DNA of 64,000 nt from positions 2,180 through 66,179 of IMG/VR virus record IMGVR_UViG_3300035698_018668, one strand, 5' to 3'. The notes under the pieces are model-generated. The model ran no database searches. It was given only the letters and a program-made list of their open reading frames with translations, and was not told the origin of the DNA. Made by a program: the position numbers and the translations under genes. Below are positions 5,101 through 62,874 of this stretch, piece by piece. The DNA comes from a virus (taxonomy: Duplodnaviria; Caudoviricetes). Positions within the stretch are counted from its first letter, which is position 1. Every line of letters begins with the position of its first letter.

Positions 5101-7699
5101 TCGTTTGATCAATCAAACGGATCCGAACGCTGACGGCGCAAGAAATAATGTCAGGAGTCCTGCTTTTGGAGACAGAAGAAACGTTAGAGGCAATAGTAGG
5201 AAATCCACCCCTTTAGATTTCTTAAACACAATATTCCCAGACTTTGACACGCAACTTTCAGGCATTAACAAAAATCTAGCTCTTGCCCGAGACGGCGGGG
5301 ATGGTTCTTTAGGCGCTTCGGGAAAAGCCGTTGAAGACTTAAACACGCTCGTTTCTGAATTAACGACCTTTGTGAATGGCGGAAAAATAACTCAAGAGAA
5401 ATTACTTGCCCAAGTGTTCGGGGACGATGAGTCCTTATCTAAGAAGAGAAGTAAGGACCTTATTAAGGAGGTCTTGAACAGTCTTCAACAGCGCCAGCAA
5501 GCAGCCAACAAAGTTCAAGGGAACCTCAAGCAGTTTGATGATTCCAATGAAACCAAGATACGGCAGGAGACGCTTAGAAAGAAAACGATTACTGATGGCC
5601 CGGGTGAGCAGGTTATTCAAATTAAGGAGGAGTTTCAATCTGCTTTTGAGGAAGTTATAAAAAAGAATCAAGATACCCCAGATGCAGAGCAAGACTATAT
5701 TGCGCTTTATGATTCCGTTGAATTACTCGCGGCTAAAGCGGATAAAGAACTTGACGCGATAACTGAAGCAGCTGAGGCCATGGCTCGTCAGTTAGTTGAG
5801 CCAGGAACCGAAGAAGAAGTGAATAAGCGGGCTCGAAAACTATTGCGAGAAACGCGTTTCAACGCACTAGCTGCTACAGCAGAGTCAAACGTTAATGATG
5901 CTCAAAGACAAGCTGCAGAGCTTGCCACGCCAGATGTTAACTTCAGATTCAGCCAGCAGGAAAAAGGGCTGGCTAACTTAATTTCCCCGCTTGAAGTTAG
6001 ATTACGTGACAGTCTGGATATCGAGGAAAGTGGCGAGCTAATCAATAAAATAATGGAGTACTACCGTCAGAAGGTAGATATTGAAACGGCTAGACTTGTA
6101 TTTGATTCCAAGAAGGGTAAGGGGCTATCCGGCGAAGCTTTAGAAGTGCGAAATCGTGAAGCTGAAATAGACAAGCGAACCAAACTAGGGGAACTCAATT
6201 CCATTGCTTCAAAGAATCAAAGCAGAGTTGATATTGGAAACGCATTAACCACCGCTTATGAAGGGGATGGCCAGCTTAATCTCAGTCGTACTAAATTCTC
6301 AGACGATGACCTATCAAAACAAATTACTAATTTTGTGGGGGCGGTTAAAACTACGATCGCTGACGAGTTGAAAACCTCTGAAAACCGAGCGGATATAGTC
6401 GGGAATACTTCCGCGCTTCGTAAAGTCGATGCGGAACGCTCCTTAGAACTTGGAGAGAATGAAGCTTACACCGGAAGAGCCCGACGCAGAAATATCGCGG
6501 ACAGCGAATCTTCAATTGATGAGGTCAGCATCTTAGATGCTCAGTCTATTGATATTAGACGTAGAGCCTTAGCTTCCGCTATTGCGGATTACCAAAAGTT
6601 AATTGAAATACTCAATAGCCAAGTCGTCAACAACGAAGACCTAGCTAAAGGAAAATCTAAAACCGCAGCGATAAAGCAAGTTGCAGACCTTGAAAAATTA
6701 GTTACTAATCAGAAAAAATCCCTGATTGACCTAGATTCTCAAGCAGCGGAATCAGCGGAAGGCGTAGACAAGTTCGGACGGACCCTTACCAGCCTAAAGC
6801 GAGACCTAGAAGGTGGCAGCTACGACACGAACCGTCAGAGAAAGATTAAAGCTCAGGTATATGGCACAAGCTATACCCCAATCGGGGAGACTGTTGCAGA
6901 TAATACGTATGCCGAGAATGAGTCGGGAGGCTTAGGTACTAAATTAACTAATGGTTTCAATGGGGCCCTTGAAGAGCTCAACATTGAGTTCTCAAACTTT
7001 GATGCTATAAGCACTTCGATTGAGGGTTTGACGGACTTAGCGAAGGGCATGGGCGACACTTTTGCCAATGCTTTTACTCAGTTTGCTACAGGGGCTTTGA
7101 GCGCTGAGGAAGCAACTAAACAACTGTTCGCATCTATGCTTCAATCGATGCTGAATATTGTGGCTCAGTCTGCATTCAAGCAGTTATTGTCCACGGTGTT
7201 TGGGAGTCTTGCAGGGGGTACTCTTGGGGGAGAAACAACTGGCGGTGGTGGCGGGGTAATGGGACCCCCCCCTCCTCCTACGGGTTATACGGGCGGTGAA
7301 GTAATGGCCGGAGGGGCCATCGGTCGCGGTTATTATGGTGGGGGTTTAATTAGTTCCGGGATAGGTAGCCGAGATTCTACGAATGCTCGGGTTGCCCGAG
7401 GGGAGTTTATCCTGCGTAAGAAAGCGGTAGACGCTTTGGGGGTTGATACGGTGCGAGCTCTTAACTCAGGGGATCCGAATATCATCGCCAAGCAAACCAG
7501 CAAAGTAGATGCGGGCACAATGCCAACGACTCAGGATAGTTCTGGCGGAGGTAAGACGGTAAACATGTATGTGGTCACTCCAGACCAAGTACCTCAGAAC
7601 TTAGGCCCAAATGATGTAGTGCATGCCGTCAGTGATAACTTGATGCGGGGGGGCTCTTTGAAGACCTTAATTAAACGAATTAACATGGATACTTTATAA
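2192..7699 (+). CDS. tail tape measure protein
   Basis: ~1835 aa, helical. TP901-type core (TKFSALDVTQAAVTLGQAG..NSGIRSGSTLGTGLR) and typical C-terminal GEFILRKKAVDALG motif. Confidence 0.92.
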   Translation: MSTGNRIKQTLLNVGVDPKGIKDLDRMVKQFQALEKAMKDAGKSLKDAVPEITKDNLKKGGTPVDIGQTTQYRKLLDAQKQNIKGVSNQFVSDIVNNKGLGLTRSQKADVQRSFNNTFKEMMGDFTGSLKKQVKAQRKTLNDFYTQEFNKRPEIARRTPLTQNQARSLRGNELQAGLEATKVQLRGARAGLSFAQKNEGNDKLLTQANSEIKRLSKNLKLGNERFEDQTRILRKQSNVAAKAGFKDPALARSTSFFYNDQFRRNPATSRLPAIDGSSLGTLGAGDLRAQIASQKLLLKGANSARDIGQETRNTKLESQASRSIKSLSENLDKATLRLKELEKAARDAAAAEKRATTAETRKVNQQSKEQLRPTDQQRRVNNAMERNKQNSVNRNIDGGAGLFRQQASLLRNYAVLGGGVAAGAGAVSFAVELQKEFKQLQSIVALTNTEMTELEETLIGVSEKTKFSALDVTQAAVTLGQAGLGKNDIGNAIEGVTLFATAVGSDLKSAVDLATSTLGVFNKDSSEMVNIVDKMTTAVNSSKLNLDKLALGLQYSGNLAAQSNVSFEETVSALAAMANSGIRSGSTLGTGLRQIIIALQKPSAEFKDIIGGLGLTMDQLDISSRGLVPTLKLLADEGFTVRDAMKSMQVRAASAFGAFANNIDVADELQKKMRLSGSATQANAVQMTALAFQLERLYSIMKSIAFNAFEPVINSLTKLVEKTGDWLSQLREMKGLISLIGPGLAIYATAVGARSVGRLGVGLLSGGASLLGGAAIGGGKKASPESRTMGKLATAISGRGGLLSVLGGLSRLLSFLPGFGIAVAAGTAGVLAYNALDSQERSRDRVDTTQARINENDSDIETYEARVTKINAAIIELMDNQHLLADDKELNRRIQRLNDDFKLQGLYLDDNVTSYANLIDKMKEFRNEAIENRDVLTFRDRDSFLENNKAVIDELFSNDQESETILDSRFDRLINQTDPNADGARNNVRSPAFGDRRNVRGNSRKSTPLDFLNTIFPDFDTQLSGINKNLALARDGGDGSLGASGKAVEDLNTLVSELTTFVNGGKITQEKLLAQVFGDDESLSKKRSKDLIKEVLNSLQQRQQAANKVQGNLKQFDDSNETKIRQETLRKKTITDGPGEQVIQIKEEFQSAFEEVIKKNQDTPDAEQDYIALYDSVELLAAKADKELDAITEAAEAMARQLVEPGTEEEVNKRARKLLRETRFNALAATAESNVNDAQRQAAELATPDVNFRFSQQEKGLANLISPLEVRLRDSLDIEESGELINKIMEYYRQKVDIETARLVFDSKKGKGLSGEALEVRNREAEIDKRTKLGELNSIASKNQSRVDIGNALTTAYEGDGQLNLSRTKFSDDDLSKQITNFVGAVKTTIADELKTSENRADIVGNTSALRKVDAERSLELGENEAYTGRARRRNIADSESSIDEVSILDAQSIDIRRRALASAIADYQKLIEILNSQVVNNEDLAKGKSKTAAIKQVADLEKLVTNQKKSLIDLDSQAAESAEGVDKFGRTLTSLKRDLEGGSYDTNRQRKIKAQVYGTSYTPIGETVADNTYAENESGGLGTKLTNGFNGALEELNIEFSNFDAISTSIEGLTDLAKGMGDTFANAFTQFATGALSAEEATKQLFASMLQSMLNIVAQSAFKQLLSTVFGSLAGGTLGGETTGGGGGVMGPPPPPTGYTGGEVMAGGAIGRGYYGGGLISSGIGSRDSTNARVARGEFILRKKAVDALGVDTVRALNSGDPNIIAKQTSKVDAGTMPTTQDSSGGGKTVNMYVVTPDQVPQNLGPNDVVHAVSDNLMRGGSLKTLIKRINMDTL

Positions 7700-7700
7700 T

Positions 7701-8093
7701 ATGGCCTTGCAAACTTTTAATTTTCCGTACCACTCAGTGCAAACTGAATACCCCAACAGAGGGCTTTCGGTGGCCCTGGGGGGCGGCTGGGAATATACCG
7801 TTAAACCAAACACGCCGATAGCGGTAGATTTAACCCTAACTTTTGCTGCGATGAAACGCTTTGATGAGGGCTTAGTGCTGACCGACCGACAAGAGGATAT
7901 CAGCCTTGCTCGTCTTGAAACATTCTACAGAGAACATGAGATGCACGAATACTTTTTGTATGAGCACCCAAATTTAGGTAATATGGTTGTTAAGTTTTCA
8001 GCCCCGTTGGTCGTTCCTCCGGGGACTATTGGCGGAGATGGGGCCGTATTAAACCTGACTTTTCGGTTAAAACAGAGGTCAATAGGTTACTAA
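7701..8093 (+). CDS. distal/minor tail protein (lambda M-like)
   Basis: 130 aa directly after the tape measure gene. The LETFYREHE..FLYEHP segment resembles M-like proteins. Confidence 0.6.
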   Translation: MALQTFNFPYHSVQTEYPNRGLSVALGGGWEYTVKPNTPIAVDLTLTFAAMKRFDEGLVLTDRQEDISLARLETFYREHEMHEYFLYEHPNLGNMVVKFSAPLVVPPGTIGGDGAVLNLTFRLKQRSIGY

Positions 8094-8126
8094 TTAACCT
8101 TTTATCAATTAAATGAATAAAATAGC

Positions 8127-8155
8127 TTGTAAATGGGCTTAAGTATAGGTAATCT
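8127..8155 (+). promoter_or_regulatory. sigma70-like promoter of the putative sRNA
   Basis: TTGTAA (8127-8132), 17-bp spacer, TAATCT (8150-8155), with an AT-rich UP-like tract upstream. Confidence 0.65.
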
Positions 8156-8159
8156 ACAC

Positions 8160-8240
8160 TCCGGTTAGCTTGCTACGGTAAGTTGATTATCGTCAATTCC
8201 AACATCAACCCCGCATTCATCGTGTGGGGTTTCTTTGTTT
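8160..8240 (+). ncRNA. putative trans-acting small RNA antisense to the phage start-codon motif
   Basis: Intergenic and bounded by promoter and terminator. Three hairpins: a CUUG-loop stem (~8161-8178), a GTTGAT/ATCAAC stem with loop TATCGTCAATTCCAAC (8188-8203), and the terminator. Confidence 0.7.
8207..8240 (+). terminator. intrinsic terminator of the putative sRNA
   Basis: AACCCCGCA-ttcatcg-TGTGGGGTT followed by TCTTTGTTT. Confidence 0.75.
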
Positions 8241-8288
8241 ATAGCCTGGAATAAGTTAGACTCAGGTTTAAAATTTGGAGAATTGACG

Positions 8289-8777
8289 ATGCCGGAAATT
8301 AGCGCAACTTTTAAAGAGGAAACTCAAAGCCTCTCACCTACAAAACCTCTTACGTTTATAGAAATTCTTTTCGAAGACCATCTAGCCAACAACATTGCGC
8401 TGCGCTTTACCGATGGCGATACTGTTAATTGGAAGGGCCAAACCTGGTCTAATCAACCTTTTAAAATGACGTCGATAATTAAGTCCTCTTCAGGGGAAGT
8501 TACCCGCCCAAAGCTCACTCTTCCGAATGACCAAGGGTTGTTCTCAGCTTACGTTTCTAAAAAGGTTCTGGACTTCGCAGAGGTTAATTCCTTTAAATGT
8601 TCTCCCTTGGAGCTGGATACCTTTGACGGGTTTCAACAAAGTTTTGTGGTATCTCATGTTGTCAGCTTATCTCAAGAAGCAATCACTATGGAATTAAGAA
8701 GAGCGAGTGATGGCAATAATTTTCGGTTACCCCCTAAGCGATATACTCAACCAGAATTCCCAACGGTGATCGTATGA
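8289..8777 (+). CDS. minor tail protein (lambda L-like)
   Basis: VNWKGQTWSNQPF..GEVTRPKLTLPN pattern and position in the tail tip block. Start corrected to the motif ATG at 8289. Confidence 0.75.
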   Translation: MPEISATFKEETQSLSPTKPLTFIEILFEDHLANNIALRFTDGDTVNWKGQTWSNQPFKMTSIIKSSSGEVTRPKLTLPNDQGLFSAYVSKKVLDFAEVNSFKCSPLELDTFDGFQQSFVVSHVVSLSQEAITMELRRASDGNNFRLPPKRYTQPEFPTVIV

Positions 8778-9256
8778 TTAGTGAGCTCTTTAAGCTGGTT
8801 GGAAAGCCGTATGCTGAAGGTTATCAAGATTGCTATACCTTGGCTCAAAAGTATTACCTTCAGCAGTTTAATATCCAGCTGACGAATTATGCTCGTCCGA
8901 ATAACTGGCATCATGTTACAGGCTTTAATTTGTTTGACCGATTTTTTGAGGCTGAGGGTTTTCAGGACACAGGGAATAACGCCCATAATGTAAAAGTGGG
9001 GGATGCGTTGTTAATCAATATTGCCCGGAGCGCCTGTACGAATCATGTGGCTATTTACGTTGGCCAAAATAAGATTTTGCATCACCTACAAGGTCAGAAT
9101 TCTAAAATGGAGCCGTATTCAGACCGTTGGCGCTTTAGAGTAAAGCGAGTTTTGAGGACTCCTGCAGCGCATTATGGAAACGATTTAACTTCACTTTCTA
9201 GTTTTTACAATCAGTTGCCTCCAACCATCAAGAGCCGCCTAAAGAATGAAAATTAA
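8774..9256 (+). CDS. NlpC/P60 tail assembly protein (lambda K C-terminal-like)
   Basis: DCY catalytic Cys plus NHVAIYVG..ILHH. Confidence 0.85.
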   Translation: MISELFKLVGKPYAEGYQDCYTLAQKYYLQQFNIQLTNYARPNNWHHVTGFNLFDRFFEAEGFQDTGNNAHNVKVGDALLINIARSACTNHVAIYVGQNKILHHLQGQNSKMEPYSDRWRFRVKRVLRTPAAHYGNDLTSLSSFYNQLPPTIKSRLKNEN

Positions 9257-9590
9257 ACTTGCTAAGTTACACAGCTATTGGGTGCCTGATATTGAGCGAT
9301 GTGGATTTGTTTTAACAACGGGCGAAATCCTTGAGGCCGAGAATATCCACAATAACCCAGCCGAGGAATTTGAAATATGTCCTTCCGAATTTGAGAGTTA
9401 TACGGATAGAGTTGCAGCGGTTTGGCACTCGCACCCAATTACAAATGCCAACTTGAGCCTTGCAGACTACGACACCTTTGATAACTTTAGGAACCTAACG
9501 CATATTATTGTCGGCCAGCATGAGGTTATCAGTTACAAATTTAAAAATTCTGTATTACTAATAGACGAGGTTTACCGTGGTAACAATTAA
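9246..9590 (+). CDS. JAB/MPN-domain tail protein (lambda K N-terminal-like)
   Basis: ERCGF..WHSHP..LSLAD JAMM motif. Confidence 0.85.
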   Translation: MKIKLAKLHSYWVPDIERCGFVLTTGEILEAENIHNNPAEEFEICPSEFESYTDRVAAVWHSHPITNANLSLADYDTFDNFRNLTHIIVGQHEVISYKFKNSVLLIDEVYRGNN

Positions 9591-10308
9591 TCTAACCGGT
9601 TTCGATAATAGCATTCCCAAGACCATTAAACTTGAGGCCAGAACTTACAAAGAGGCCCTTGAAGGGCTTAAGTTATTCGATTTCTTCAATCCTATAAAGC
9701 AGACAAAGCGATTTATTTGTGAGGTATCCGAGTGCAACGAGGCACAAAAGTTTACTTCAGATATTAAGAATGGCGTAATGACTTTGGTATGTAACGAAAC
9801 CGTAAAACAAAAGCAACTTAGGGGGGCGGGGAATAGAAACGTACGTTTTGTAATTGGCGTCATCCTGATTGTTACTGCGGTTATATTAACTTCGGGTATG
9901 GCCCTTGCGGAGATACCCTGGTATATGACTGTGATGTTCAATGTGGGTGTCAGTTTGGTTCTTGGCGCTATTATTGAGCTGATAACAGAACCCGGTTCTG
10001 GAGATGCTAACAAGCGGCAAAGTCGCTCGGCTAGAACATACCCAAACACAGTGGAATCGGGAACCCCGATAGCCTTGATATTTGGTACCCACCGTTTCGG
10101 GGGGCATATCTTTAGCGTCAATATTGAGTCCGCCAACGGTTCGGATGTCTATTTCAGTAAGTTTGCCGAAAATCTTTGGGTCAATATAGACCCCAACCGC
10201 CGGGACTCTTGGGATATGGTCTATAGAAATGCTGACACAAAGGAAACAGGCCTTCAAGAATGGGAGGGTTATTTAAGGACCCAAATCGGGGGGTACCAGA
10301 TACCTTAA
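9577..10308 (+). CDS. tail assembly protein (lambda I-like)
   Basis: Ubiquitin-like N-terminus ending in RGAG, a hydrophobic segment, and NTVESGTPIALIFG. Confidence 0.8.
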   Translation: MVTINLTGFDNSIPKTIKLEARTYKEALEGLKLFDFFNPIKQTKRFICEVSECNEAQKFTSDIKNGVMTLVCNETVKQKQLRGAGNRNVRFVIGVILIVTAVILTSGMALAEIPWYMTVMFNVGVSLVLGAIIELITEPGSGDANKRQSRSARTYPNTVESGTPIALIFGTHRFGGHIFSVNIESANGSDVYFSKFAENLWVNIDPNRRDSWDMVYRNADTKETGLQEWEGYLRTQIGGYQIP

Positions 10309-10374
10309 AAAGAAACTGAGTGATATAGTACAGGCCTACAATTTAAATATGACGATGATTAACTAGGAGCACCC

Positions 10375-13300
10375 ATGAAATATAAGGGTAGTGGCGGCGG
10401 AGGACCGTCTGATAAGTCAGACACTTTATTTTCTACGGATGCTTTTGAAATCCTTTTAGGTATTGCTGAAGGACCTATATTTGGTATAGCTGGGGACACC
10501 CCAGAAGAAAAGCTGCAGAATATTTTTATTAATGATACGCCTATCTTTGATACGAATAATGTCGATAATTTCGATGAAAGCCAATTACTCATCCGTTTTG
10601 AAAAAGGGTTAGAAGTTACTGCTGCGGAAGACCCTGAGTTTGGGCAAACTCCAATTCGGTATATTTTTGATGGTGCAACGGTTAACCAATCAGTTGGCTC
10701 GCAATTACTTTTTGAGGTCCCGATTTCAAAAACGACCCCGCTAATTACTGGCGGGTTTGACCGTATTCAAGTTAGAATTTTGGTGTCCTCCCTTGTCAGA
10801 TACACCGATGATGGCGCTAGAACTCATGAAGTGGATTTTGACATAAAATGCACAAAGGTTGGAGCTACAACTTGGACCCTCGAAAGTCACAATATTTCAG
10901 GGAAAACTACAGGTAGTGGATTTACTCGGGAGTACACGATAATCGTACCCCGAACTGTGGGGACTGAAGCCTACGAAATTGAAGTAGTAAAGCGCACCAA
11001 CGATGAAGATGATGATAAGAGGGACTCCCAAATATATTGGCAGTCTTACGACCTAATCAGCTCGAAAGGGGACGCCTATTCAAACGATGAAACCCCCTAT
11101 AGTGACCCGAGTTTAGAGTATCATCCGGGAACCTCGATGCTGCATTTTTCAGGGGTTCTAGGGCAGCAATTAAATTCTGTCCCGACAATCAATGCGAACT
11201 ACCGAGGGCTAATGTGCTCGGTACCCTCAAACTACACTCCGGAAACTAAAACCTATGATGAAACATCCGCATGGGACGGCACCTTTAGCGCTGAGAAATA
11301 CCCCACGGATAATCCAGTTTGGTTGGCTCATGAGCTAATCACAAACCTGCGTTTCGGCGCAGTTAGGTATAACCCAAAAATAAAGGTCAACCGCTACTCT
11401 TGGTATGAAAAAGCAAAGTATGCCGATGGCTATAATGCGATTACTGGGGTTAAAGATTTAAACGACCCAATCTCAGGGGCTCAGCAAGTTGCGCGGTACA
11501 CCTTCAACGCCGTATTGACCGACCCAAGCAACGGCATTAAATTCGTTAATCAGATACTGGCAACGGCCTATTTCCTCGCCGTAGAAGATGAGCTTGGTGA
11601 AATCAAGCTTTATGCCGACATGCCTTCTTTGCCTGTAGAGACCCTCACCCCTGAAATGTGCGTTCAAGTGACAGGACAGAGTGAGTTTTTATATTCTTAC
11701 TCGCCTCTTAAAGAGCGCAGCAATGAAGTCAAAGCCAGTTACATCGACAAGGACAATGAGTACGTAACGCAGTATTTGGGGGCTATAAGAGATGAGGATG
11801 CTATTGCCAAGTACGGGCTAAACTCAACGGAGTTCACTGCGCTAGGAACCACCACTTCGTGGGAATGCTATCGCAAGATGTATTTGATGCTGTCCTCAAT
11901 GCTGTCCGAAGTTGAAATCGTTACTTTTACGTTGCCCCTTGCAGGAATTCAATTCAGCATATTTGAAGTGGTTAATATTATTGACCCCGTGATGGGGTAT
12001 GGCCTTTCAGGTCGAATTATTTCCCTTAATTATGCCTCTCGAAAGATAAGTGTCCGGGACCCATTATTCATTGATGAAACTGGGATTTACACCGTAAAAA
12101 TTCAGGGCCTAACGCAAACCCACGAATACACAACCTTTATATCTCTGGACAAAGAAGGAATCCCGCTATTTGAATTTACGTTGAACGCGGACCTCCCTCC
12201 TCAAGTTGAGCTTGCAGAGTACCCAGTGGTGCGTATCGAGAACCCAATAAATTCAACGAAGACTGTTGGCCTTCCTAAGCCTTATCGCATCACGAACATT
12301 GAAGAGAGCGATGATAAGGGCATCGACATGTATGTTATTAGTGCTGTTGAGGTTAATCCTAACAAGCACACTGACGCGGATTTACTGACCCAGAGTGTCA
12401 CGCCCCAATATAATTTCTTCAGGTCTAAGCCACTTAAGAAGGTCCAGAACCTACAAGTTGTTGACCAGAGCACGGTGCGAACGCTAAAAGGGGCGAATAA
12501 CAGCCTCTGGATAAGTTGGGATGAGCAAGAAGACCGCCCACTTGGAACGCTTTATAATATTGAGGTGATAACCGATAGTATATCTGGGGCGAACCAGACC
12601 TACATCACGTCTGAGAACTTTGCAGAAATTAAAGGTTTGGACTTTGGTAATATTATTATCCAAGTGACCGCTGAAGCTAATTCTGTCTCAGGGCCTTCAG
12701 CATTCGTTAAGTGGGAAATTGTGAGGGTTAACGCTGGGGACTTAACATTATCTTCAGCTGTTCCGGTGATAAATGCCGCCCTAAATGGGTTTGTATTGAA
12801 CGCGGACTTAGAGCTCCCCTATGCGTTTAGCAATAACCCAAATGAGGTAATCGACCTGCTTAAAGTCGGGTATATCGATCGCGTTTTCTGCCAGCTCTTT
12901 GACATCTCAGGAACGGGGAATGTTTACCTTGGTGAGTTCTTTTCTAAGAACGGAGAGTTTAATCTCACGGCCAGCCAAATAAGACAGGTACTGAAGAATC
13001 CGGAGGTACTCCCCGATGAGCTGCAGCTGCGCTTTCATTTTGAGGACTCGGTTAGAGACCGCTATCCAGGTACTTCAAATTTGGATTTTACTTATGTGAT
13101 CCAAACGGTAGGGACTATAACCGGCGTGGTACTCTCCGCTTTAGACAGTGATTATTCTGAGTACCAAGCGGATTGGGATAGTACGCACTTTGGCTACGAT
13201 GTGACATTATTTGAGAATGATGGGAAGACTGTTGTTTTCAAAACTACCGTGTTTACTAACAGCCTCAATCTACCGACCTTAGATCCAAGCAAGAATTATA

Positions 13301-18716: not shown

Positions 18717-18739
18717 AGGTCCTAAAATTTGGATTGACG

Positions 18740-26511: not shown

Positions 26512-26558
26512 CGTTTCTGAAGGCTTAGGAACATTTTAGGAACATTCTCAAGGAACAT

Positions 26559-27596
26559 TTATTTAGGTAGGGGCGCCAAATCCCCAAAAGTGGCGGGAAC
26601 CTGCTGTAATTTTCGGTCGTAATCCATCGTTTGACGAACATTTGTGTGTCCAGCAATCAATTTTTTCTCTTCTAAGCTGCCTTCTTGGTCAGAAATACTT
26701 TTTGCTTTTAAATCGTGAAAGTGTATATCCATTTGTGATACTGAATCAAAGTTACATTCATTTACTGAATGTTCTTTAGCTTGCTCAAATTGACGTTGAA
26801 TTCCTCGCACTTGGTAATTTGATCCATTTACTTTATGAATAAGAAAAATAGACACTCTATTCTCCTTAATGGGGAGTTTTAGAGCTTGGTTTACGGCTTG
26901 CTGCAATCGAGGGCTCCATTGTTTTAGCTGAGCCTTACCTGTTTTGGATTGGACTATCGTGATGCCCTCAGGAGAAAGCTGAGAACGTTTAAGGTTAATT
27001 ACATCCGTAATACGAGCCATACATAAATACGACAGCTCCATTGCAACCTGAAGCTGGGGCATCGCATGTTTATATATCGTGGCATACTCATGGTGGGTTA
27101 CATATCGAGTTCGCTTCCGCTCCTTTAACTTCTTGATACCTTGGCTTGGGGTACCGGTGAGGTAACCTTGCTCCCTAGCATACCTTAGCACTGTCCCTAT
27201 AAAAGAAACGTGCCTATTCCCTTGTACAACAGAATCTCGTTTCTTAACCAAGAGGTTTCTCCACTGAACTATGTGGTGCGTTTGAATTGCGTCTGGGCTC
27301 ATCTTACCAAAGGCAAGCACGACTTCAGACTTGTAGTAGCCATAATCTAATTGAGTTCGAGAGGAGAGGGCTTTGAACTCCTCGGTAGCACAGAATTCTT
27401 CAACGAGGGAACGAACATTGAATGAACCCTCAAGCTCACTCAATATTCTGTCATAGGCTAGGAGAACGTCCCTACGAGAACCATCAGCAGGACATAGTTT
27501 ATAACGTTTGCCGTTACGAATTGGGCGGTATACAAAGTAGTTTCCGTTAATTGATACTTTCGGTGGCCACCAATCGACCGTTTTGTTAATTGTCAT
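26559..27596 (-). CDS. int: tyrosine integrase
   Basis: Catalytic R (ARITD), K (QSKTG), HFHDLKAK, GH and Y (DYDR). Adjacent to attP. Confidence 0.92.
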   Translation of the reverse strand: MTINKTVDWWPPKVSINGNYFVYRPIRNGKRYKLCPADGSRRDVLLAYDRILSELEGSFNVRSLVEEFCATEEFKALSSRTQLDYGYYKSEVVLAFGKMSPDAIQTHHIVQWRNLLVKKRDSVVQGNRHVSFIGTVLRYAREQGYLTGTPSQGIKKLKERKRTRYVTHHEYATIYKHAMPQLQVAMELSYLCMARITDVINLKRSQLSPEGITIVQSKTGKAQLKQWSPRLQQAVNQALKLPIKENRVSIFLIHKVNGSNYQVRGIQRQFEQAKEHSVNECNFDSVSQMDIHFHDLKAKSISDQEGSLEEKKLIAGHTNVRQTMDYDRKLQQVPATFGDLAPLPK

Positions 27597-31463: not shown

Positions 31464-31988
31464 TTACCGTTTTTTCCCAGAATTTCCAGTATTTACAATA
31501 ATTCTTTTCTGGACCCCTCCACGCCTACTGAGTCTCTTAGCAGCCATATACTCTGGGTGTCTTAAAACCAAAGTCTCTTGCGCTTTTGAAGACTCCGTTG
31601 CAGAGACAATACCGTCAGGGCGTCCCCACAAATTCCAACGTTTGGTATTCGCTTTCATGTTGCTTAAATACTTAATGCTATTCACATGATACCCAATGGC
31701 GCGATATAGCTCTTTTGAACTCATCGCCTTAGGGGATATGATTCCCCGGATTTGTTGGTATATGTTTTTACTTAAGGGCTTTCTAAGAGAAAGCTTGTAA
31801 TGGTTGGTCCTACAAGTAAAGACGACAAAAAACCAAGCGGATCTTTCATCGTCAAACTCAAGTCTTTTGGAATTAAATTTTTGATTTACACCCGCAAGAG
31901 CCACAATATCCAGCCCCTTGTTATCTTTTTTGAACATCGACTTAACCCCAGCAATTAAAGTAATTATTACTCTAAAGAATACTATCAT
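31464..31988 (-). CDS. hypothetical basic protein
   Basis: ORF fills the gap in the operon. Start position uncertain. Confidence 0.5.
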   Translation of the reverse strand: MIVFFRVIITLIAGVKSMFKKDNKGLDIVALAGVNQKFNSKRLEFDDERSAWFFVVFTCRTNHYKLSLRKPLSKNIYQQIRGIISPKAMSSKELYRAIGYHVNSIKYLSNMKANTKRWNLWGRPDGIVSATESSKAQETLVLRHPEYMAAKRLSRRGGVQKRIIVNTGNSGKKR

Positions 31989-40102: not shown

Positions 40103-40912
40103 TTACATGACCATTGGGTTTTCTAGCTGTATCGCGTTGAGTATTTCTTGCGCTACTTGGGGGTTGAAATTAGGGACTGTCATGCCTTTGCTTAACTGCT
40201 CACTACTAATAGGGATGAAGTCAATCACTTGCCAGTAAGTCAGTAAGTCTTCTCGCTGAGAAAATAGGTTCTTAGCCTTAGCTGGGGTTAAGCCTAACTT
40301 TTCTTTAGCCTCGGTCTCCGTCAATTCTAGGTTACCTAGGATAAAGTCTTCAAAGTTGCACTTTTGAGCATCGCTGAGCTTTTCAAACGTCCCGTGGCCA
40401 AACCCTTTCAAGCCTAGAATATTATCCGCTTTATCTCCTACAAGGGTTTTATATAAGCGAATATCGTCCTGCTTGAAGCCTTCTAACTTAGGTGCCATAT
40501 ACCCGAGTTCGATAGTGTCATCAATTAATAACTGGCGAAAATCTTGGTCGTTAGATTCAATTCTGATTGTCGTTTCTGGACTCTTTGAACGACAGATTGC
40601 AGCAATTAAATCATCCCCCTCAAACCCTTCGAGCTCAACCTGTATCGATTTTGAAAGCCCTATCAAGGTTTTAAACGTATTCATAAAAACATGAAAAGAG
40701 TCCACGCTTTCAGGCTCATCTTGTTTTACCTTGTAAGTCGGCATAATTTTTTGCCTTGCAGATTTAGCATGTTTGCCATCCCAAACCCATATCAAGGTTT
40801 CGTTGGCGGGTACCGAGCATGCTTGAACAAATAACTGGGTTACTACCGTGGGACCCTCAGATTCAAACTGGCGGCGGAGGAAGTTATTACCATCGATTAA
40901 ATTAATTTTCAT
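40103..40912 (-). CDS. 5'-3' exonuclease (flap endonuclease)
   Basis: IDGNN, WDG, EGDD, SNDQD and GDKADNILGLKGFG motifs. Confidence 0.9.
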   Translation of the reverse strand: MKINLIDGNNFLRRQFESEGPTVVTQLFVQACSVPANETLIWVWDGKHAKSARQKIMPTYKVKQDEPESVDSFHVFMNTFKTLIGLSKSIQVELEGFEGDDLIAAICRSKSPETTIRIESNDQDFRQLLIDDTIELGYMAPKLEGFKQDDIRLYKTLVGDKADNILGLKGFGHGTFEKLSDAQKCNFEDFILGNLELTETEAKEKLGLTPAKAKNLFSQREDLLTYWQVIDFIPISSEQLSKGMTVPNFNPQVAQEILNAIQLENPMVM

Positions 40913-40932
40913 ATCGTCAATTCCAAATTGTT

Positions 40933-47121: not shown

Positions 47122-47352
47122 CTACCCTTTATTTTCTTGCTGTCTTCTTGATTGATAACAATTATCTATCTCAGTACATCGCTTCATTTGCTTGTGAATG
47201 AAAAACACACTCAACCCTAAAATAGGTAATACTAATACCGGGGTTATTTGCGTACTTAACAAGATAAACAGAAGTAACAAGATAACGGCTGCAATGCCGT
47301 ATCCATCTGTATACCTGCGGCTGGTTAACTCTGGAGGGAGGTTAGTTTTCAT
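47122..47352 (-). CDS. small two-TM membrane protein
   Basis: Motif-type start at 47352 and two hydrophobic helices. Confidence 0.6.
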   Translation of the reverse strand: MKTNLPPELTSRRYTDGYGIAAVILLLLFILLSTQITPVLVLPILGLSVFFIHKQMKRCTEIDNCYQSRRQQENKG

Positions 47353-47437
47353 ATCGTCAATTCCAAGTTGTCTCGACTTTATTTGCCGAACGAATAAGTT
47401 ACCTTGATATGCGTTCAGAATCAAGCGCATCTCAAAC

Positions 47438-49495: not shown

Positions 49496-52400
49496 CTAAT
49501 TTTTAACCCAATCCCAACCAAGCATCTCTTTGTGATTCTTGATATGTTCGGGTGTTGGTTGAACGTACATTGCAAACTGCATACATTGGTAGCCCCCGGA
49601 ACCAATTACCCAGTAACCTACGGGTTTTGGTGGAGACTGAATGCAAAAGGTTGCTGCGTTTGTGTTTACTATTGTGATATCCCTACTCACGATTTCAAAT
49701 CCTTCTTAACTGTCTTGGCATGTTCTTCAGCGTCTTCTTTGCTCAAGCCGTGACAACAAATAGTATCTCTCTTAAAGGGGTGGGAGATAACAACCCCATA
49801 GCCTTCGGCAAAGGGCCAAATCGTTTTCATTACTTTTACACTGGTTAAAATGCTCATACTATCTCTCAACTTCTGGATGATCGGCTGATGTGGTAACTAC
49901 TGCTTGACCCCACGGATGATTCATTATTATCCAGTGAGCTTTTAGATATGCTACACATTTGTAGCGATAACCTTTCTTACTGTGATACTCAAGCGTACTT
50001 TTAAGGTTAAGCAAAGCGTGAACGTAGTATCTAGTCACTTTGACACCTCGCTTGCTTGTTTGGTTAGCAAAGATTTTAAATAATAAAAGTGACTGTCTTT
50101 CAGTGAGTTCGCATTATCGAACAAGAAATTGTGTAAGTCTTTTTGCTTTCTCTCAAGCTCCGAAATATGCTTATCTTTAGCTTCAACCTCCTCTCTAAGT
50201 GTAATTATTTCGTTTATGTCTGCGAGTGATTGAATCTCCCATGAATGCTCCTCGCCAGACAATTCTAAATCTGTGTATTTTTGTTTAATCGGATTCCATA
50301 AATACCAATCTTCAGATTCATTTAAAACGTAACCCATAATTGAAACGTAATCAGCTGTTTTTGGCGCACCATCCCGAATAGCTTTAAGTTCTTGTGTTGT
50401 TTGTTTCATCGCTTTATATACCTTTTTTCATTCACTAAAGAGTCAAGCTGATTACAGTACTTCACAAAATCTACATCAAAAGACACGTATCTAGTAACCA
50501 CTCTGTCAAAAGTAAACAAACCAAATAAATAAAACTCCCTAAAAATTAAATCAAAGCAATGAGTGTTTATTACTGCACAATCAATTTGATAATTTATTAG
50601 CTCACGTTTAAAAAATGGTTTCATTAGCCTTTACCCTCTAGTTGTTCTTCAATTTCAAATGTTCCATTGTCGTTTAGCTCAATTAATTGGTAAGTTGCAT
50701 TAGGAACGCTAACAGCCTGTTGAATTACAACTTGTAAACCAACTTCGGTGCTTTCACAAAAATAACTCTCAAACACATCTCTAACGTCAAACTGACATTC
50801 ATCAGGATTTTCAGCGTCCCAAAACATATTTGGATTTTTTGCATTAGCTAACTGCTCTTCAAGCTCTGCAATACGCTCCAATGCCCTAGTGCCAACATCT
50901 ATACAGCAGTCATCTTCTGTGGCAACTGAAGTAGTTAATTGTGGTTTTTTATTCCACTCCCACTTTGCTATTTCTAGCGCCTCGTCTTCACTGTCAGCTT
51001 CAATAATTTGATACCCTCTACCGTGTTCAGTATTCCACTTTATGAGGTGTTTCATTAGTCTTGCCTCTTAACTTTAACAACAATACCTTTGTTATAAAGC
51101 ATCTCTATCATCTGATTAGCTGTAGCAACTAATTGTTCTGTTGATATTTCTTTGTTGTCAAAAGTCAGTTGCATAGCACTAACCGCCCATCCTTTCGGTG
51201 ATATATCTTTATATTCAAACATTAGTCTTTACCCCCTTTATCTATACAGAGTCTAAGCATTGATAATATATCCGAAATATTTTCACAGCCTCCTATTAAA
51301 TCAATCATACCGTCTTCGGCTTTCCCGCTAGTGAAATTAACTGACGAATTTGCTTTTTGAATTCGCTCTGGCATATCTAAAATCTTAGCTTCTAAACTGC
51401 GAATAATTAGCAAGACTCGTTCTTTTGTCATTACTTCTGATTCAAACAAGTCACACAGTGTCAGGTCTTTAAAATTTTGCATGTTCATTAGACTTTACCC
51501 TCTAGTTATTAAAATTGATAAATATCATGGTCATGACATATTTGATTTATTGTGGGTATAGCTCTAAAAACTGAGAACTCACCCTCCCACATACCCTTTG
51601 TTTTGCTGTAAGCGTCACCTTTTAGTATTTTGCATTTTTGTCGTCTAGCCTTAACCAGTTCACGCTTTTCTGTAAAGCTAAGTTCATCAATGAAATCGCA
51701 TAAGCTGTTATTAACCCACACACACGCATCACACTCATAATCTTTCCGCGCAATTTGTAAATTGGTACTTTCAAAGTTCCAAGTCATTAGCCTTTACCCT
51801 CTAGTTGTTTAGTTATCTCCATAGACAAGTTCTTAGCCCCATAACTACCGATATTTTTGTAAATAGTTTCTAGCATTGTCCTGCACTCCTTTAACAACTC
51901 ATTTGAACTAGCTAACTGCTCTTTAAAATCCTCAGTGGCTTTTTTTATACCTCTTTTTTCTCCGCTTACCATTAATGAGTGTAGATTTTTATTTATGCTA
52001 AGTTCACTAGCTAACTGCTCGCGTAAGGAGTCAATCTCTTTCAACTGGTCTATCTGTTTTTGTATGTCAGCGAGTGAGCGCATATTTATAATTGCATCAA
52101 TACAAACGCTATCACTGTCTACTGCAATAAATTTGTTATCATCTTCACTAAAAATTGCTATTTCGTTTATCATCATGCAGTCGTCTAAATAAATATCTTT
52201 ATTGACTGGTGCTTCCAATTGCGCGAAATAACTCATGCTTTCTGGCTTACCCGCAATAATACTTTCTAGCGTTTGTAGTTCATTCATCAGTCTGCACTCC
52301 CTATGCAATAGCCGTTTTCGATAAGTCTGTTGTACTCATACGTAGCGCCTCTTGACTCACTTATAATTTTCTTATATTGCTCAGTACTCAACGGCTTAAC

Positions 52401-59806: not shown

Positions 59807-60588
59807 GATAATTGCTCCAAAGGTAGTTCTAATTGCGTTATATGGTGAGTGAAATTAGGCACCACGTATTCTTCAAACATCTCGGCATAGGCGATATCGC
59901 CATAAAAACCCCAACAAGAGTCAACCTCCTCGCCCTTGTGCTCCAAGGTAAAACCCCAAATATTGCCGGTTAAGTAATCATCCCAAACCTTAACGTCTGA
60001 CGTTATCCAACCCTGAACACGCTCCTCAGTCTTGGCCGAAATACGCTGGACACTTAAATTTTCACGCACCACGGCTTTGCTCTGGCAAGCAAATCCCACG
60101 ACCCCAGAATCCCAGCGACAAGAAAAGGAACTGGTTGAAATGGTGATACCTGAATGGTCATAGATATAAACCCACGTCCAAACATACAGAGATGAAAACA
60201 ACTCCTGAAGTCTCTCAAAAACATCCGCCCCACTTACTAGGCGCTCCTCTAAGCCATAGAAATAACTTTCAACGTCATAATTTACCTTGTCTTGGATCAA
60301 GTCCATCATCGCCGCTCTAACGTCTGAGTAGTTATGCTTTAGGCCAATATTGTAGCGCCTGTGAAAAGTATAAAGCTGAGTGACCAGCTCCATTTCACAG
60401 GGCGGATCCATGCAGTCGGTCTCTCTCACAAACTCCAACTTCCAATCGCCTTGGGCTTGGAATTCATAACTTTCCTCAGAGGTGAAATTATTTTGGAAAA
60501 CCGCCTCCACAAGAGCGGGGAGGGCATTGTGTAGGGCCGTTACTTTAGGTAAAACCCGATTTTTTATTGCTTGTATTTCAGTATTCAT
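59803..60588 (-). CDS. hypothetical early protein (possible anti-defence)
   Basis: Motif-type start. YDHSGITIS..WDSGVVGF..DSCWGFYG. Confidence 0.6.
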   Translation of the reverse strand: MNTEIQAIKNRVLPKVTALHNALPALVEAVFQNNFTSEESYEFQAQGDWKLEFVRETDCMDPPCEMELVTQLYTFHRRYNIGLKHNYSDVRAAMMDLIQDKVNYDVESYFYGLEERLVSGADVFERLQELFSSLYVWTWVYIYDHSGITISTSSFSCRWDSGVVGFACQSKAVVRENLSVQRISAKTEERVQGWITSDVKVWDDYLTGNIWGFTLEHKGEEVDSCWGFYGDIAYAEMFEEYVVPNFTHHITQLELPLEQLS

Positions 60589-61041: not shown

Positions 61042-61368
61042 TCACGCGGATTCCTCCAACTGACAAGACCAAACATATTCCCCCACGCCATTCTCAACGT
61101 GAAACTCATCCGCCACGCCAAACAATCGAATGTTGCTGGCCGTAGGTGCTGCAAAATTGAGGTTTCGAAAGTTAAAGGGCTTGTCTTCCCACAAGGCAGC
61201 ATTCAGCAACATGCACGGCAAACCATCCAAAGTAATGTCTATGAGTAGGCCATAGGCTTTGTCTAAGCTCATGTAACGCGCTTTCTTGTTGCTTGAATAG
61301 AAGAGTACTGCTTTAGGGAGTTCTGTCGCTTGAGAGGGCTCCCAAGCAAGCTTGTGTATTGTTTTCAT
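61042..61368 (-). CDS. hypothetical early protein
   Basis: Motif-type start at 61368. Confidence 0.6.
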   Translation of the reverse strand: MKTIHKLAWEPSQATELPKAVLFYSSNKKARYMSLDKAYGLLIDITLDGLPCMLLNAALWEDKPFNFRNLNFAAPTASNIRLFGVADEFHVENGVGEYVWSCQLEESA

Positions 61369-61966
61369 CGTCAATTCCAAATTATTGGTTAGTTAATTAT
61401 ATTTTGCCGAAGTGTTCACGTGAACACCCCGACAACCCAGCTAGAGTAGCATCCCCCTAAAACCCAACGCAACTACTTCTCAATACCCCAAACTCCAGAC
61501 TCGAACAACAATTGAAAACCTAGACGCGAGATTTATTTGTTGCATGGCCTTTTGTTTGCGTGAACCTAAACGAATTTAGGTATAGGTATTCATAAAATAA
61601 ATTGGGCAGGGGGGTTTTGAGTCATGCCCTTTTCTTTTTAGTTTCTTGAAACTTTAAACTAACGGTTTCAATAGAAAAAGTTTAGGCTTTTCTTTTGGTT
61701 TTCTGCCACGCTCGCAGTTTATGTTATCATTCATAATCTATTAAAGAGTAAAAGTTTATTGACAAGATTTTTTTTTCCTTGAGTTAGCTTATAGAAATAG
61801 AGCTTAGAGAATTTTGTTCTAAATCCTCTGAACGCGAGTGTAGCACCTAGATGGAGGCATAGGGGCCAATCGAGATAAGTTCCTAAAATGAGGGTTTCGG
61901 ACAAGGCCTGAAAAACGGGCTTTTTTGCTGGTTAAAAAATGAACAGCAAAAATGTTTTTAAAACGC

Positions 61967-62830: not shown

Positions 62831-62874
<44 letters not shown>

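Follow-up and report, generated by a model that had tools for sequence, protein, structure and literature searches.

A predicted small RNA complementary to the start motif of about a third of the genes of a temperate phage

Why would a phage keep, between two of its tail genes, a single reversed copy of a sequence that otherwise marks the starts of its own genes? The question is raised by a locus in IMGVR_UViG_3300035698_018668, a 66-kb uncultured virus record of 82% completeness, of which a stretch of 64 kb, hereafter the window, was analysed. In the 195-nt gap between the genes of an M-like and an L-like tail protein, a sequence-only reading made by a model had placed a promoter, a transcript of about 80 nt and a terminator, and had suggested that this RNA is antisense to the start sites of some 35 genes and represses them together. 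We followed up this suggestion computationally, by pairing predictions, by comparison with related phages and by a search for a possible RNA chaperone. The comparative evidence for an RNA gene is good, and the mechanism, as far as nucleotide and protein sequences allow it to be judged, is plausible.

Results

A start motif and its single reverse copy

The window has two arms: the structural genes occupy the + strand as far as about 26.3 kb, after which the early and replication genes follow on the - strand. The motif found at gene starts has the consensus GGAATTGACGAT(G/A), preceded by a weaker A-rich ACAATT, and its information is concentrated in GGAATTGACGAT(G). With at most two mismatches allowed, the 14-mer TTGGAATTGACGAT occurred 22 times where 0.44 occurrences were expected, a count that none of 100 shuffles reached. 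Two occurrences lie on the + strand in the + arm and 19 on the - strand in the - arm; the last one, at 8189-8202, is a perfect copy in the opposite orientation and the sole reverse copy at this threshold. It carries the complement of TTGGAATTGACGAT away from any gene start, as had been claimed, and after the motif the opposite strand reads ATA ATC AAC TTA CCG TAG, with no ATG.

The start codon lies 0, 2 or 3 nt from the motif (GACGATG, GACGATATG and GACGATTATG). In a crude table of 86 open reading frames (ORFs), 34 were flagged for a motif at the start; 27 of these ORFs belong to the minus arm, and two flags (12181 and 52526) are doubtful calls of the script. The motif-bearing genes are mostly early and replication genes. 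Genes free of the motif carry ordinary GGAG or GAGG sites, which indicates that the host uses Shine-Dalgarno pairing and that the GGA of the motif is a Shine-Dalgarno core.

Several further sequences accompany the motif. The variant TGACGATGATTAAC, said to extend the pairing into the 5' stem strand of the RNA, is present at 10351-10364 and near 18735. Around the first of these sites (10345-10376), the AGGAG site and ATG (10375) of the J-like gene itself are directly preceded by a mini-ORF of three codons (ATG ATT AAC TAG), which is headed by a partial start motif, ACAATTTAAATATGACGATG. A run of small genes at 50035-51809 has a second type of repeated junction, AACTAGAGGGTAAAGGCTA followed by ATG, whose start context is unlike the main motif. 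The 16-bp palindrome GTGTTCACGTGAACAC occurs in 11 copies (0.19 expected) between 46097 and 63790; none lies outside the early arm, and most of them closely precede a start motif. A related genome described below, G001, has a different palindrome, GTGGGGACTCCCCAC, at the equivalent places. These palindromes look like a counterpart of the inverted repeats of the extended start-associated sequences (ESAS) of Cluster K mycobacteriophages, that is, operator or promoter modules or RNA hairpins. Finally, the core GGAATTGACG, present at 8190-8200 and in all motif copies, presumably coincides with a universal segment of 16S ribosomal RNA (rRNA), the target of the primers 907R and 926R. We treat this likeness as chance, because the motif of the phage KB12-38, which has the same system, lacks one A.

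The predicted small RNA and its fold

The reverse copy is part of a unit that comprises a sigma-70-like promoter, a 5' hairpin, a seed that is the exact complement of the start motif, and an intrinsic terminator (Table 1). The unit forms a self-contained segment from promoter to terminator between late genes that are adjacent in relatives. This is the arrangement of a moron, a self-contained unit inserted in a late operon and expressed from the prophage. The terminator claimed from the sequence was recovered by a scan, as a hairpin at 8207-8231 followed by a T run. The fold of the small RNA was more stable than those of all 200 shuffles (z -4.4 to -4.9). The region 8050-8350 matched no Rfam family even at relaxed thresholds, at which chance-level matches alone appeared (E above 1).

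In the minimum-energy fold, GUUGAU is taken up in the 11-bp 5' hairpin and the seed lies in an unpaired linker. The sequence-only reading had instead displayed the anti-motif in the loop of a middle 6-bp hairpin; the two strands of that hairpin (GTTGAT 8182-8187 and ATCAAC 8204-8209) are present and could pair, but the structure is not the minimum-energy fold and has no positional equivalent in the relatives. A second short complement proposed for the terminator loop (TTCATCGT) did not hold up, as it is unconserved, the loop being CCUAGU in the relatives G001 and L134. We also considered a gene on the minus strand at this locus and rejected it, given that the window offers no ATG and that the short ORFs of the relatives are unrelated.

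Table 1. Features of the window discussed in the text
Feature	Position	Strand	Remarks
M-like tail gene upstream of the gap	7701..8093	+	phrog_34212, function unknown; position as in relatives
Sigma-70-like promoter of the small RNA	8127..8155	+	TTGTAA 8127-8132, 17-nt spacer, TAATCT 8150-8155
Predicted small RNA, about 80 nt	8162..8240	+	start inferred from the -10 element, end from the terminator
5' hairpin, 11 pairs, loop UACG	8163..8188	+	minimum-energy fold
Seed, exact complement of the start motif (UAUCGUCAAUUCCAA)	8188..8202	+	8189-8200 unpaired in the minimum-energy fold
Intrinsic terminator	8207..8240	+	stem 8207-8231, U-rich tail 8232-8240; in all four phages
L-like minor tail protein gene	8289..8777	+	phrog_18 minor tail protein; relatives carry PF05100; own start motif 8279-8291
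Integrase gene	26559..27596	-	phrog_1, E 2.8e-38; degenerate start motif GGAAGAGACGATG
FinO/ProQ-domain gene, candidate small-RNA chaperone	31464..31988	-	PF04352; probable start ATG at 31937
Start motif, 15-nt perfect seed complementarity	40912..40926	-	269-aa exonuclease-like gene
Start motif, 15-nt perfect seed complementarity	47352..47366	-	76-aa gene
Start motif, best predicted seed duplex (-22.9 kcal/mol)	61366..61380	-	representative of about 30 other copies

Pairing of the seed with gene starts

Duplex predictions revealed that the starts of 33 of the 86 crude ORFs pair with the seed at -14 kcal/mol or better, a level reached by 1.8% of background windows (n=4000) and, with the reversed seed as control, by a single start out of 86. 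Both of the perfect 15-nt matches named at the outset were found (Table 1). In these in silico duplexes, the complementarity extends over 12-15 nt and covers the Shine-Dalgarno sequence, the spacer and the AUG. The start of the adjacent L-like gene ranks 21st of the 86 (-18.1 vs -22.9 kcal/mol for the best), and the seed fits the genome-wide consensus better than it fits this neighbouring start.

Conservation of the unit in related phages

A pattern scan identified G001, a 72-kb record with 65-70% nucleotide identity to the window in conserved genes, inverted orientation and an identical motif. When the core pattern was searched for, the unit turned up in G001, its identical counterpart L126 and a third variant, L134; protein searches led to KB12-38, a cultured Pseudoalteromonas phage whose DNA polymerase and L protein are 49% and 32% identical to those of the window. 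The unit occupies the gap between M and L in the window, G001/L126, L134 and KB12-38, hence in four related temperate phages. In KB12-38 this gap measures 167 nt and holds TTGACT-17-TACTAT, a 5' hairpin, the unpaired CAAUCCAAAUAG and a terminator.

Folded singly, the four sequences all gave a 5' hairpin, 12-21 nt of unpaired anti-motif and a terminator. We report single folds for the set of four, since the four-sequence MAFFT and RNAalifold treatment misaligns the KB12-38 terminator. The aligned promoter hexamers, TTGACG-16-TAATAT in G001, TTGCTT-16-TAGTAT in L134 and TTGACT-17-TACTAT in KB12-38, retain with those of the window TTG, TA...T and a spacer of 16-17 nt. The 5' hairpin sequences are unrelated among the four phages, and a three-sequence RNAalifold consensus had 5 of 9 hairpin pairs altered on both sides. 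The seed core AUCGUCAAUU does not vary among the window, G001 and L134. A covariance model (R1) recovered one copy per phage, scoring 74 bits in the window, 105 in G001 and 103 in L134. With the excess of the motif over expectation, this excludes chance.

More distant relatives have no such unit. In the phage Lumi the gap between M and L is 44 nt, and in JWF, Seuss and five gut contigs the two genes overlap or abut; Lumi, JWF and Seuss have neither the gap, nor the motif, nor a FinO/ProQ-domain protein (0/3). Wider searches added little. Comparison of positions 7000-11000 with phages by blastn gave no match, nor did the L protein alone or an alignment of the proteins P0006 and P0007 against viral contigs. 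The L alignment found 3 loci there, all already known, and the motif pattern hit at least 119 loci in viral contigs, nearly all of them single chance matches, with one real relative. A metagenome scan returned one known relative and the five distant gut contigs without the gap. No terminator followed the core among the at least 120 loci listed for the core pattern in genome contigs, and the L alignment had no match at E 1e-10 or better in 151 genomes of the family of genome G002, nor in G002 alone.

Co-variation of seed and motif

The sequence-only reading had named covariation between RNA and start motif in related phages as a check, and KB12-38 provided it, with both changed together. Its start motif is one base shorter, GGATTGAC, usually followed by A, A/T and T. 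KB12-38 contains 26 exact copies of GGATTGAC and none of GGANTTGAC, with an ATG within 10 nt at 21 of 25 sense copies, while G001 contains 10 copies of GGAATTGAC. The KB12-38 seed, AUUGUCAAUCC, matches its own motif: GUCAAUCC and AUUGUC replace the GUCAAUUCC and AUCGUC of the window, which are exactly the differences between the motifs. With their own seed, the KB12-38 starts gave a mean of -21.1 kcal/mol, 21 of 21 pairing at -14 or better, compared with means of -12.3 to -12.8 kcal/mol and 4-7 of 21 with three foreign seeds.

A subtler correspondence is seen at the base that follows GACGAT. It is G or A in the window, whose seed has a U opposite that pairs with both; it is G in all listed copies of G001, whose seed has a C. 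The longest matches of the G001 seed, 17 nt, are to early genes.

Sites complementary to the seed of their own phage type also occur in a non-coding stretch downstream of a gene of about 799 aa, which ends in a terminator (L121 19440-19520, corresponding to about 39.44-39.52 kb of G001; L133 5777-5786 and 5814-5837). There are three such sites in G001, in three tandem 30-nt repeats that each contain (A/T)GACGATGAG, and two in the L133 contig, one of 10 nt and one that is perfectly complementary to the L134 RNA over 24 nt. This stretch could be a target or sponge RNA, or consist of iterons. The equivalent region is missing from the incomplete record of the window.

A FinO/ProQ-domain protein in the same phages

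A candidate partner of the small RNA is encoded in the early arm (Table 1). The protein matches PF04352 with E 1.4e-10 and 41.5 bits, against a curated cut-off of 27. Its AlphaFold2 model has a predicted local distance difference test score (pLDDT) of 86.5, and all the Foldseek matches in PDB listed above E = 1 are FinO-domain proteins: Lpp1663, RocC (including its complex with a terminator), NMB1681, FinO and ProQ. In the annotation of KB12-38, a ProQ-domain gene stands between the primase/helicase and resolvase genes, and the ORF of the window is at the equivalent place. Homologues are present in the window, G001 and KB12-38, the 3 of 3 unit-bearing phages with enough sequence.

The family is small and divergent, with 69 matches at E 1e-3 or better among 1.84 billion representatives. 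A word-based protein search with the FinO-like protein returned itself only, and a sequence search of PDB gave a weak match to a ProQ homologue (E 0.14).

Genomic context

The presence of an integrase gene, next to which a DUF4224 protein is encoded, indicates that the phage is temperate. Directly past the end of the integrase gene, at the junction between the arms (26525-26560), an 11-nt unit, TTAGGAACATT, is repeated three times in tandem; these units may be arm-type sites of the integrase near attP. The end of the early arm is non-coding and rich in repeats, and contains a perfect (TG)20 microsatellite at 62834-62873. Among cultured phages, the closest relatives have Pseudoalteromonas, Achromobacter, Xylophilus and Caulobacter as hosts; by the nearest of them, the present phage probably infects a gammaproteobacterium. 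The stretch is covered by two DNA sequencing runs, whose contigs show no differences, and no RNA run that contains it is listed. Over the whole window, no transfer RNA was found and nothing matched Rfam at gathering thresholds.

Among the 24 larger non-structural proteins scanned, we identified a primase/helicase, a DNA polymerase, a helicase, an SbcCD-like nuclease, a resolvase, methyltransferases and an anti-restriction protein, but no phage RNA polymerase, so that host-type promoters are expected. The possibility that the start motif is the promoter of a phage-encoded RNA polymerase was rejected on the same grounds, the large ORFs being primase/helicase and DNA polymerase, and in view of the motif-free genes with their ordinary GGAG or GAGG Shine-Dalgarno sites.

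Discussion

A trans-acting repressor as the preferred reading

We propose that the small RNA is a trans-acting translational repressor with its own chaperone, similar to the RocC/RocR pair but aimed at a phage-wide box, and give this reading a probability of roughly 55%. Host RNA polymerase would make the RNA of about 80 nt from its own promoter in the M/L gap, and late-operon transcripts ending at its terminator may add to the supply. The FinO-domain protein would bind the terminator hairpin and the 3' tail, stabilise the RNA and promote its pairing with the messengers of the phage itself. Pairing of the seed would then block 30S binding at motif-bearing starts, and with 30S binding blocked the translation of all motif-bearing genes would fall together. 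Repression is what we infer from the geometry of the sequences; a role in lysogeny or immunity is a guess. Two roles might be envisaged, both less certain than the pairing itself: in a lysogen, the RNA may silence leaky lytic genes and block superinfecting relatives that share the motif, or it may shut off early genes late in infection. The resemblance of a unit with its own promoter and terminator within a late operon to a prophage-expressed moron fits the immunity idea, but late-operon transcripts could equally supply the RNA late in infection and thereby shut off early genes.

Concerning the original proposal of a genome-wide repressor over most lytic messengers, the conserved unit, its co-variation with the motif, the FinO/ProQ protein and a coverage of about a third of the genes speak for it, but the displayed-loop structure is neither favoured nor conserved.

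Several observations weigh against repression in trans. The promoter is present as a sequence, but its -10 element matches the consensus at 3 of 6 positions and was not listed by the promoter scan, which offers 8094-8123 instead; promoter-like matches in the region are moreover at chance level (4 found vs 4.3 expected). The unit is known in four versions, three of them from close relatives, and the hairpin co-variation is thin for that reason. The specificity is one-sided, as window starts pair with the KB12-38 seed at -17.0 kcal/mol (24 of 31) vs -19.5 with their own. Co-variation of seed and motif would also be expected from a protein that reads DNA in both orientations, or from gene conversion between copies. 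The integrase start still pairs with the seed at -16.2 kcal/mol and a degenerate motif is present at the FinO-domain gene as well, so the escape of the lysogeny genes from repression is not clean. The link between the FinO-domain protein and the small RNA is one of co-occurrence (3/3 vs 0/3). Finally, the opposite strand of the locus resembles an ordinary early gene start, with hairpin, short spacer and motif, and is followed in three of the four phages by a minus-strand ORF of 5-12 codons (12 in G001, 5 in L134 and 10 in KB12-38); this look probably records the origin of the unit by inverted duplication of a start module.

Alternative explanations

Control in cis is the main rival, although we consider it unlikely. 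The terminator would attenuate the late operon after the M-like gene, and in read-through RNA the anti-motif would fold onto the L start and reduce the translation of L and of genes coupled with L, the other matches being a side effect of the shared motif. In minimum-energy folds of the read-through RNA, the anti-motif does pair with the L start in 3 of 3 phages (window, G001 and KB12-38), which also counts against repression in trans; the unit always lies directly upstream of L, and in the distant relatives M and L overlap or are 44 nt apart. Yet the L start is a poorer partner than the best targets, with 11 nt plus wobble vs 15 in the window, 10 vs 17 in G001 and 8 vs 15 in KB12-38, a conserved promoter directly upstream would be superfluous for a cis element, and the co-occurrence with the FinO-domain protein is left unexplained.

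Quite improbable in our view is a DNA-level site, where a phage protein would read the motif on double-stranded DNA, as the L5 repressor reads its stoperators, and the reverse copy would be one more site, perhaps autoregulating a promoter. A common binding protein would account for the joint change of motif and reverse copy between phages, and the three tandem 30-nt repeats of G001, with their part of the motif, look like iterons; for the mycobacteriophage motif, Pope et al. left open whether RNA or protein is the reader (PMC3203893). Such a site leaves unexplained the conserved succession of hairpin, linker and terminator, the unpaired seed and the RNA-binding FinO-domain protein, and the near-fixed distance of the motif to the start codon (0, 2 or 3 nt), together with its Shine-Dalgarno core, argues for the RNA level.

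An equally improbable variant accepts that the small RNA is real and pairs, but gives it a non-repressive role: activating or timing translation, guiding RNA processing, or competing with a sponge-like non-coding RNA. The seed-complementary non-coding sites ending in a terminator (three in G001, two in L133) are in its favour, and the hairpins or palindromes that precede many motif copies could matter for processing. However, covering the Shine-Dalgarno sequence and the AUG is the classical geometry of repression, and it is also the rule for the small RNAs of the FinO family (PMC9977716); nor was any structure seen that the small RNA would open.

Least probable of all is a relic or minus-strand element without trans function, an inverted start module that drives a tiny ORF on the minus strand or is a gene start in decay: the minus strand does read hairpin, 6-nt spacer and motif as at many early genes, and G001, L134 and KB12-38 have short ORFs there, but the window has no start codon, the peptides vary in length and sequence, and a relic would not retain an invariant 10-nt core, a plus-strand U-tailed terminator and a promoter across phages that are 65-70% identical in conserved genes.

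Significance

If repression in trans is correct, the motif at the gene starts places the translation of about one third of a phage genome under one small RNA and its own chaperone, which would give phage development and immunity a layer of regulation additional to repressor proteins. A concrete and testable answer to the purpose of start-associated sequences would follow, a question that papers of 2024 and 2025 still treat as open (PMC11373665, PMC12699233). The one-base differences between the seeds and boxes of relatives suggest evolvable, RNA-based immunity specificities.

A more general idea, which we regard as tentative and rather doubtful, is that start boxes in temperate phages are address labels for a dedicated small RNA and a FinO-type chaperone. 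These would constitute a phage-wide post-transcriptional switch that silences the lytic programme of lysogens and excludes superinfecting relatives with the same box, and box and seed would diversify into immunity-like specificities (GGAAUUGAC vs GGAUUGAC); the start-associated sequences of Cluster K might be explained in the same way. As a cultured phage and its host, in the form of the Pseudoalteromonas phage KB12-38, carry the whole system, the hypothesis of repression in trans is directly testable.

Comparison with known systems

P1 C4 and P4 CI are small antisense RNAs of phages that obstruct ribosome-binding sites or bring about termination, and that have a part in the immunity of lysogens. 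Each is processed out of the very transcript under its control and has one or two sites of action. The small RNA described here matches neither their Rfam models nor any other. T4 RegA is a protein repressor that binds many early messengers in their translation initiation regions and silences them jointly, at sites that are loosely similar to one another, whereas the factor proposed here is an RNA that would read a near-invariant box by base pairing.

The closest mechanistic parallels involve FinO-domain proteins, a family with members on phages and plasmids (PMC9977716). [quoted passage not shown] RocR works in trans and has several messengers as targets (PMC9977716), as is proposed for the phage RNA, and the predicted fold of the window protein matches RocC, including the terminator-bound entry. 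As with RocC/RocR, the in silico analysis found a FinO/ProQ domain encoded on the replicon, a terminator with a single-stranded 3' tail and complementarity at ribosome-binding sites. The scale is different: RocR has four targets, and FinP and Inc have one each and are cis-encoded (PMC9977716), whereas here the box is found in 33 of 86 starts of a tailed temperate phage.

The start-associated sequences (SAS) and ESAS of Cluster K mycobacteriophages offer the other parallel. They are 13-bp boxes at 11-19 gene starts in the non-structural arm, with one reverse copy away from gene starts and upstream inverted repeats that differ between subclusters (PMC3203893); papers of 2024 and 2025 still term their role ill-defined (PMC11373665, PMC12699233). 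Both systems have a short asymmetric motif with a Shine-Dalgarno core near many starts, in one orientation and mostly in the non-structural arm, a single reverse copy off gene starts, and inverted repeats that differ between relatives (here the palindromes GTGTTCACGTGAACAC and, in G001, GTGGGGACTCCCCAC).

In the mycobacteriophage Anaya, 1 of 17 SAS copies is reversed. It lies in a 385-nt gap between gp96 and gp97 (L267 39871-39883, record positions 59870-59882), in a region present in 135 mycobacteriophage records. Neither a promoter nor a terminator came up in this region in a simple scan. When six of the mycobacteriophages were folded to a consensus, the anti-SAS CCUCCUAUCCCC lay in a hairpin loop in 4-5 of 6, which is a lead only, as GC-rich sequence folds readily.

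There are also differences from Cluster K. The Cluster K consensus GGGATAGGAGCCC is unrelated to GGAATTGACGAT, and the window falls outside the actinobacteriophage lineage; its reverse copy forms part of a unit of promoter, hairpin and terminator, and it encodes a FinO-domain protein, two features for which the literature searched has no report in Cluster K. The window system is an analogue of the Cluster K SAS, not a member. The statement of the sequence-only reading that no similar phage system had been described needs to be narrowed accordingly: Cluster K SAS with one reverse copy (PMC3203893) and small-RNA systems with FinO-domain proteins (PMC9977716) are known, but our literature searches found no description of such a phage-wide start-box small RNA. 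A FinO-domain chaperone that works with a trans-acting small RNA is thus an established pairing, and its aim at a phage-wide start box would, if the sequences are read correctly, be the new element.

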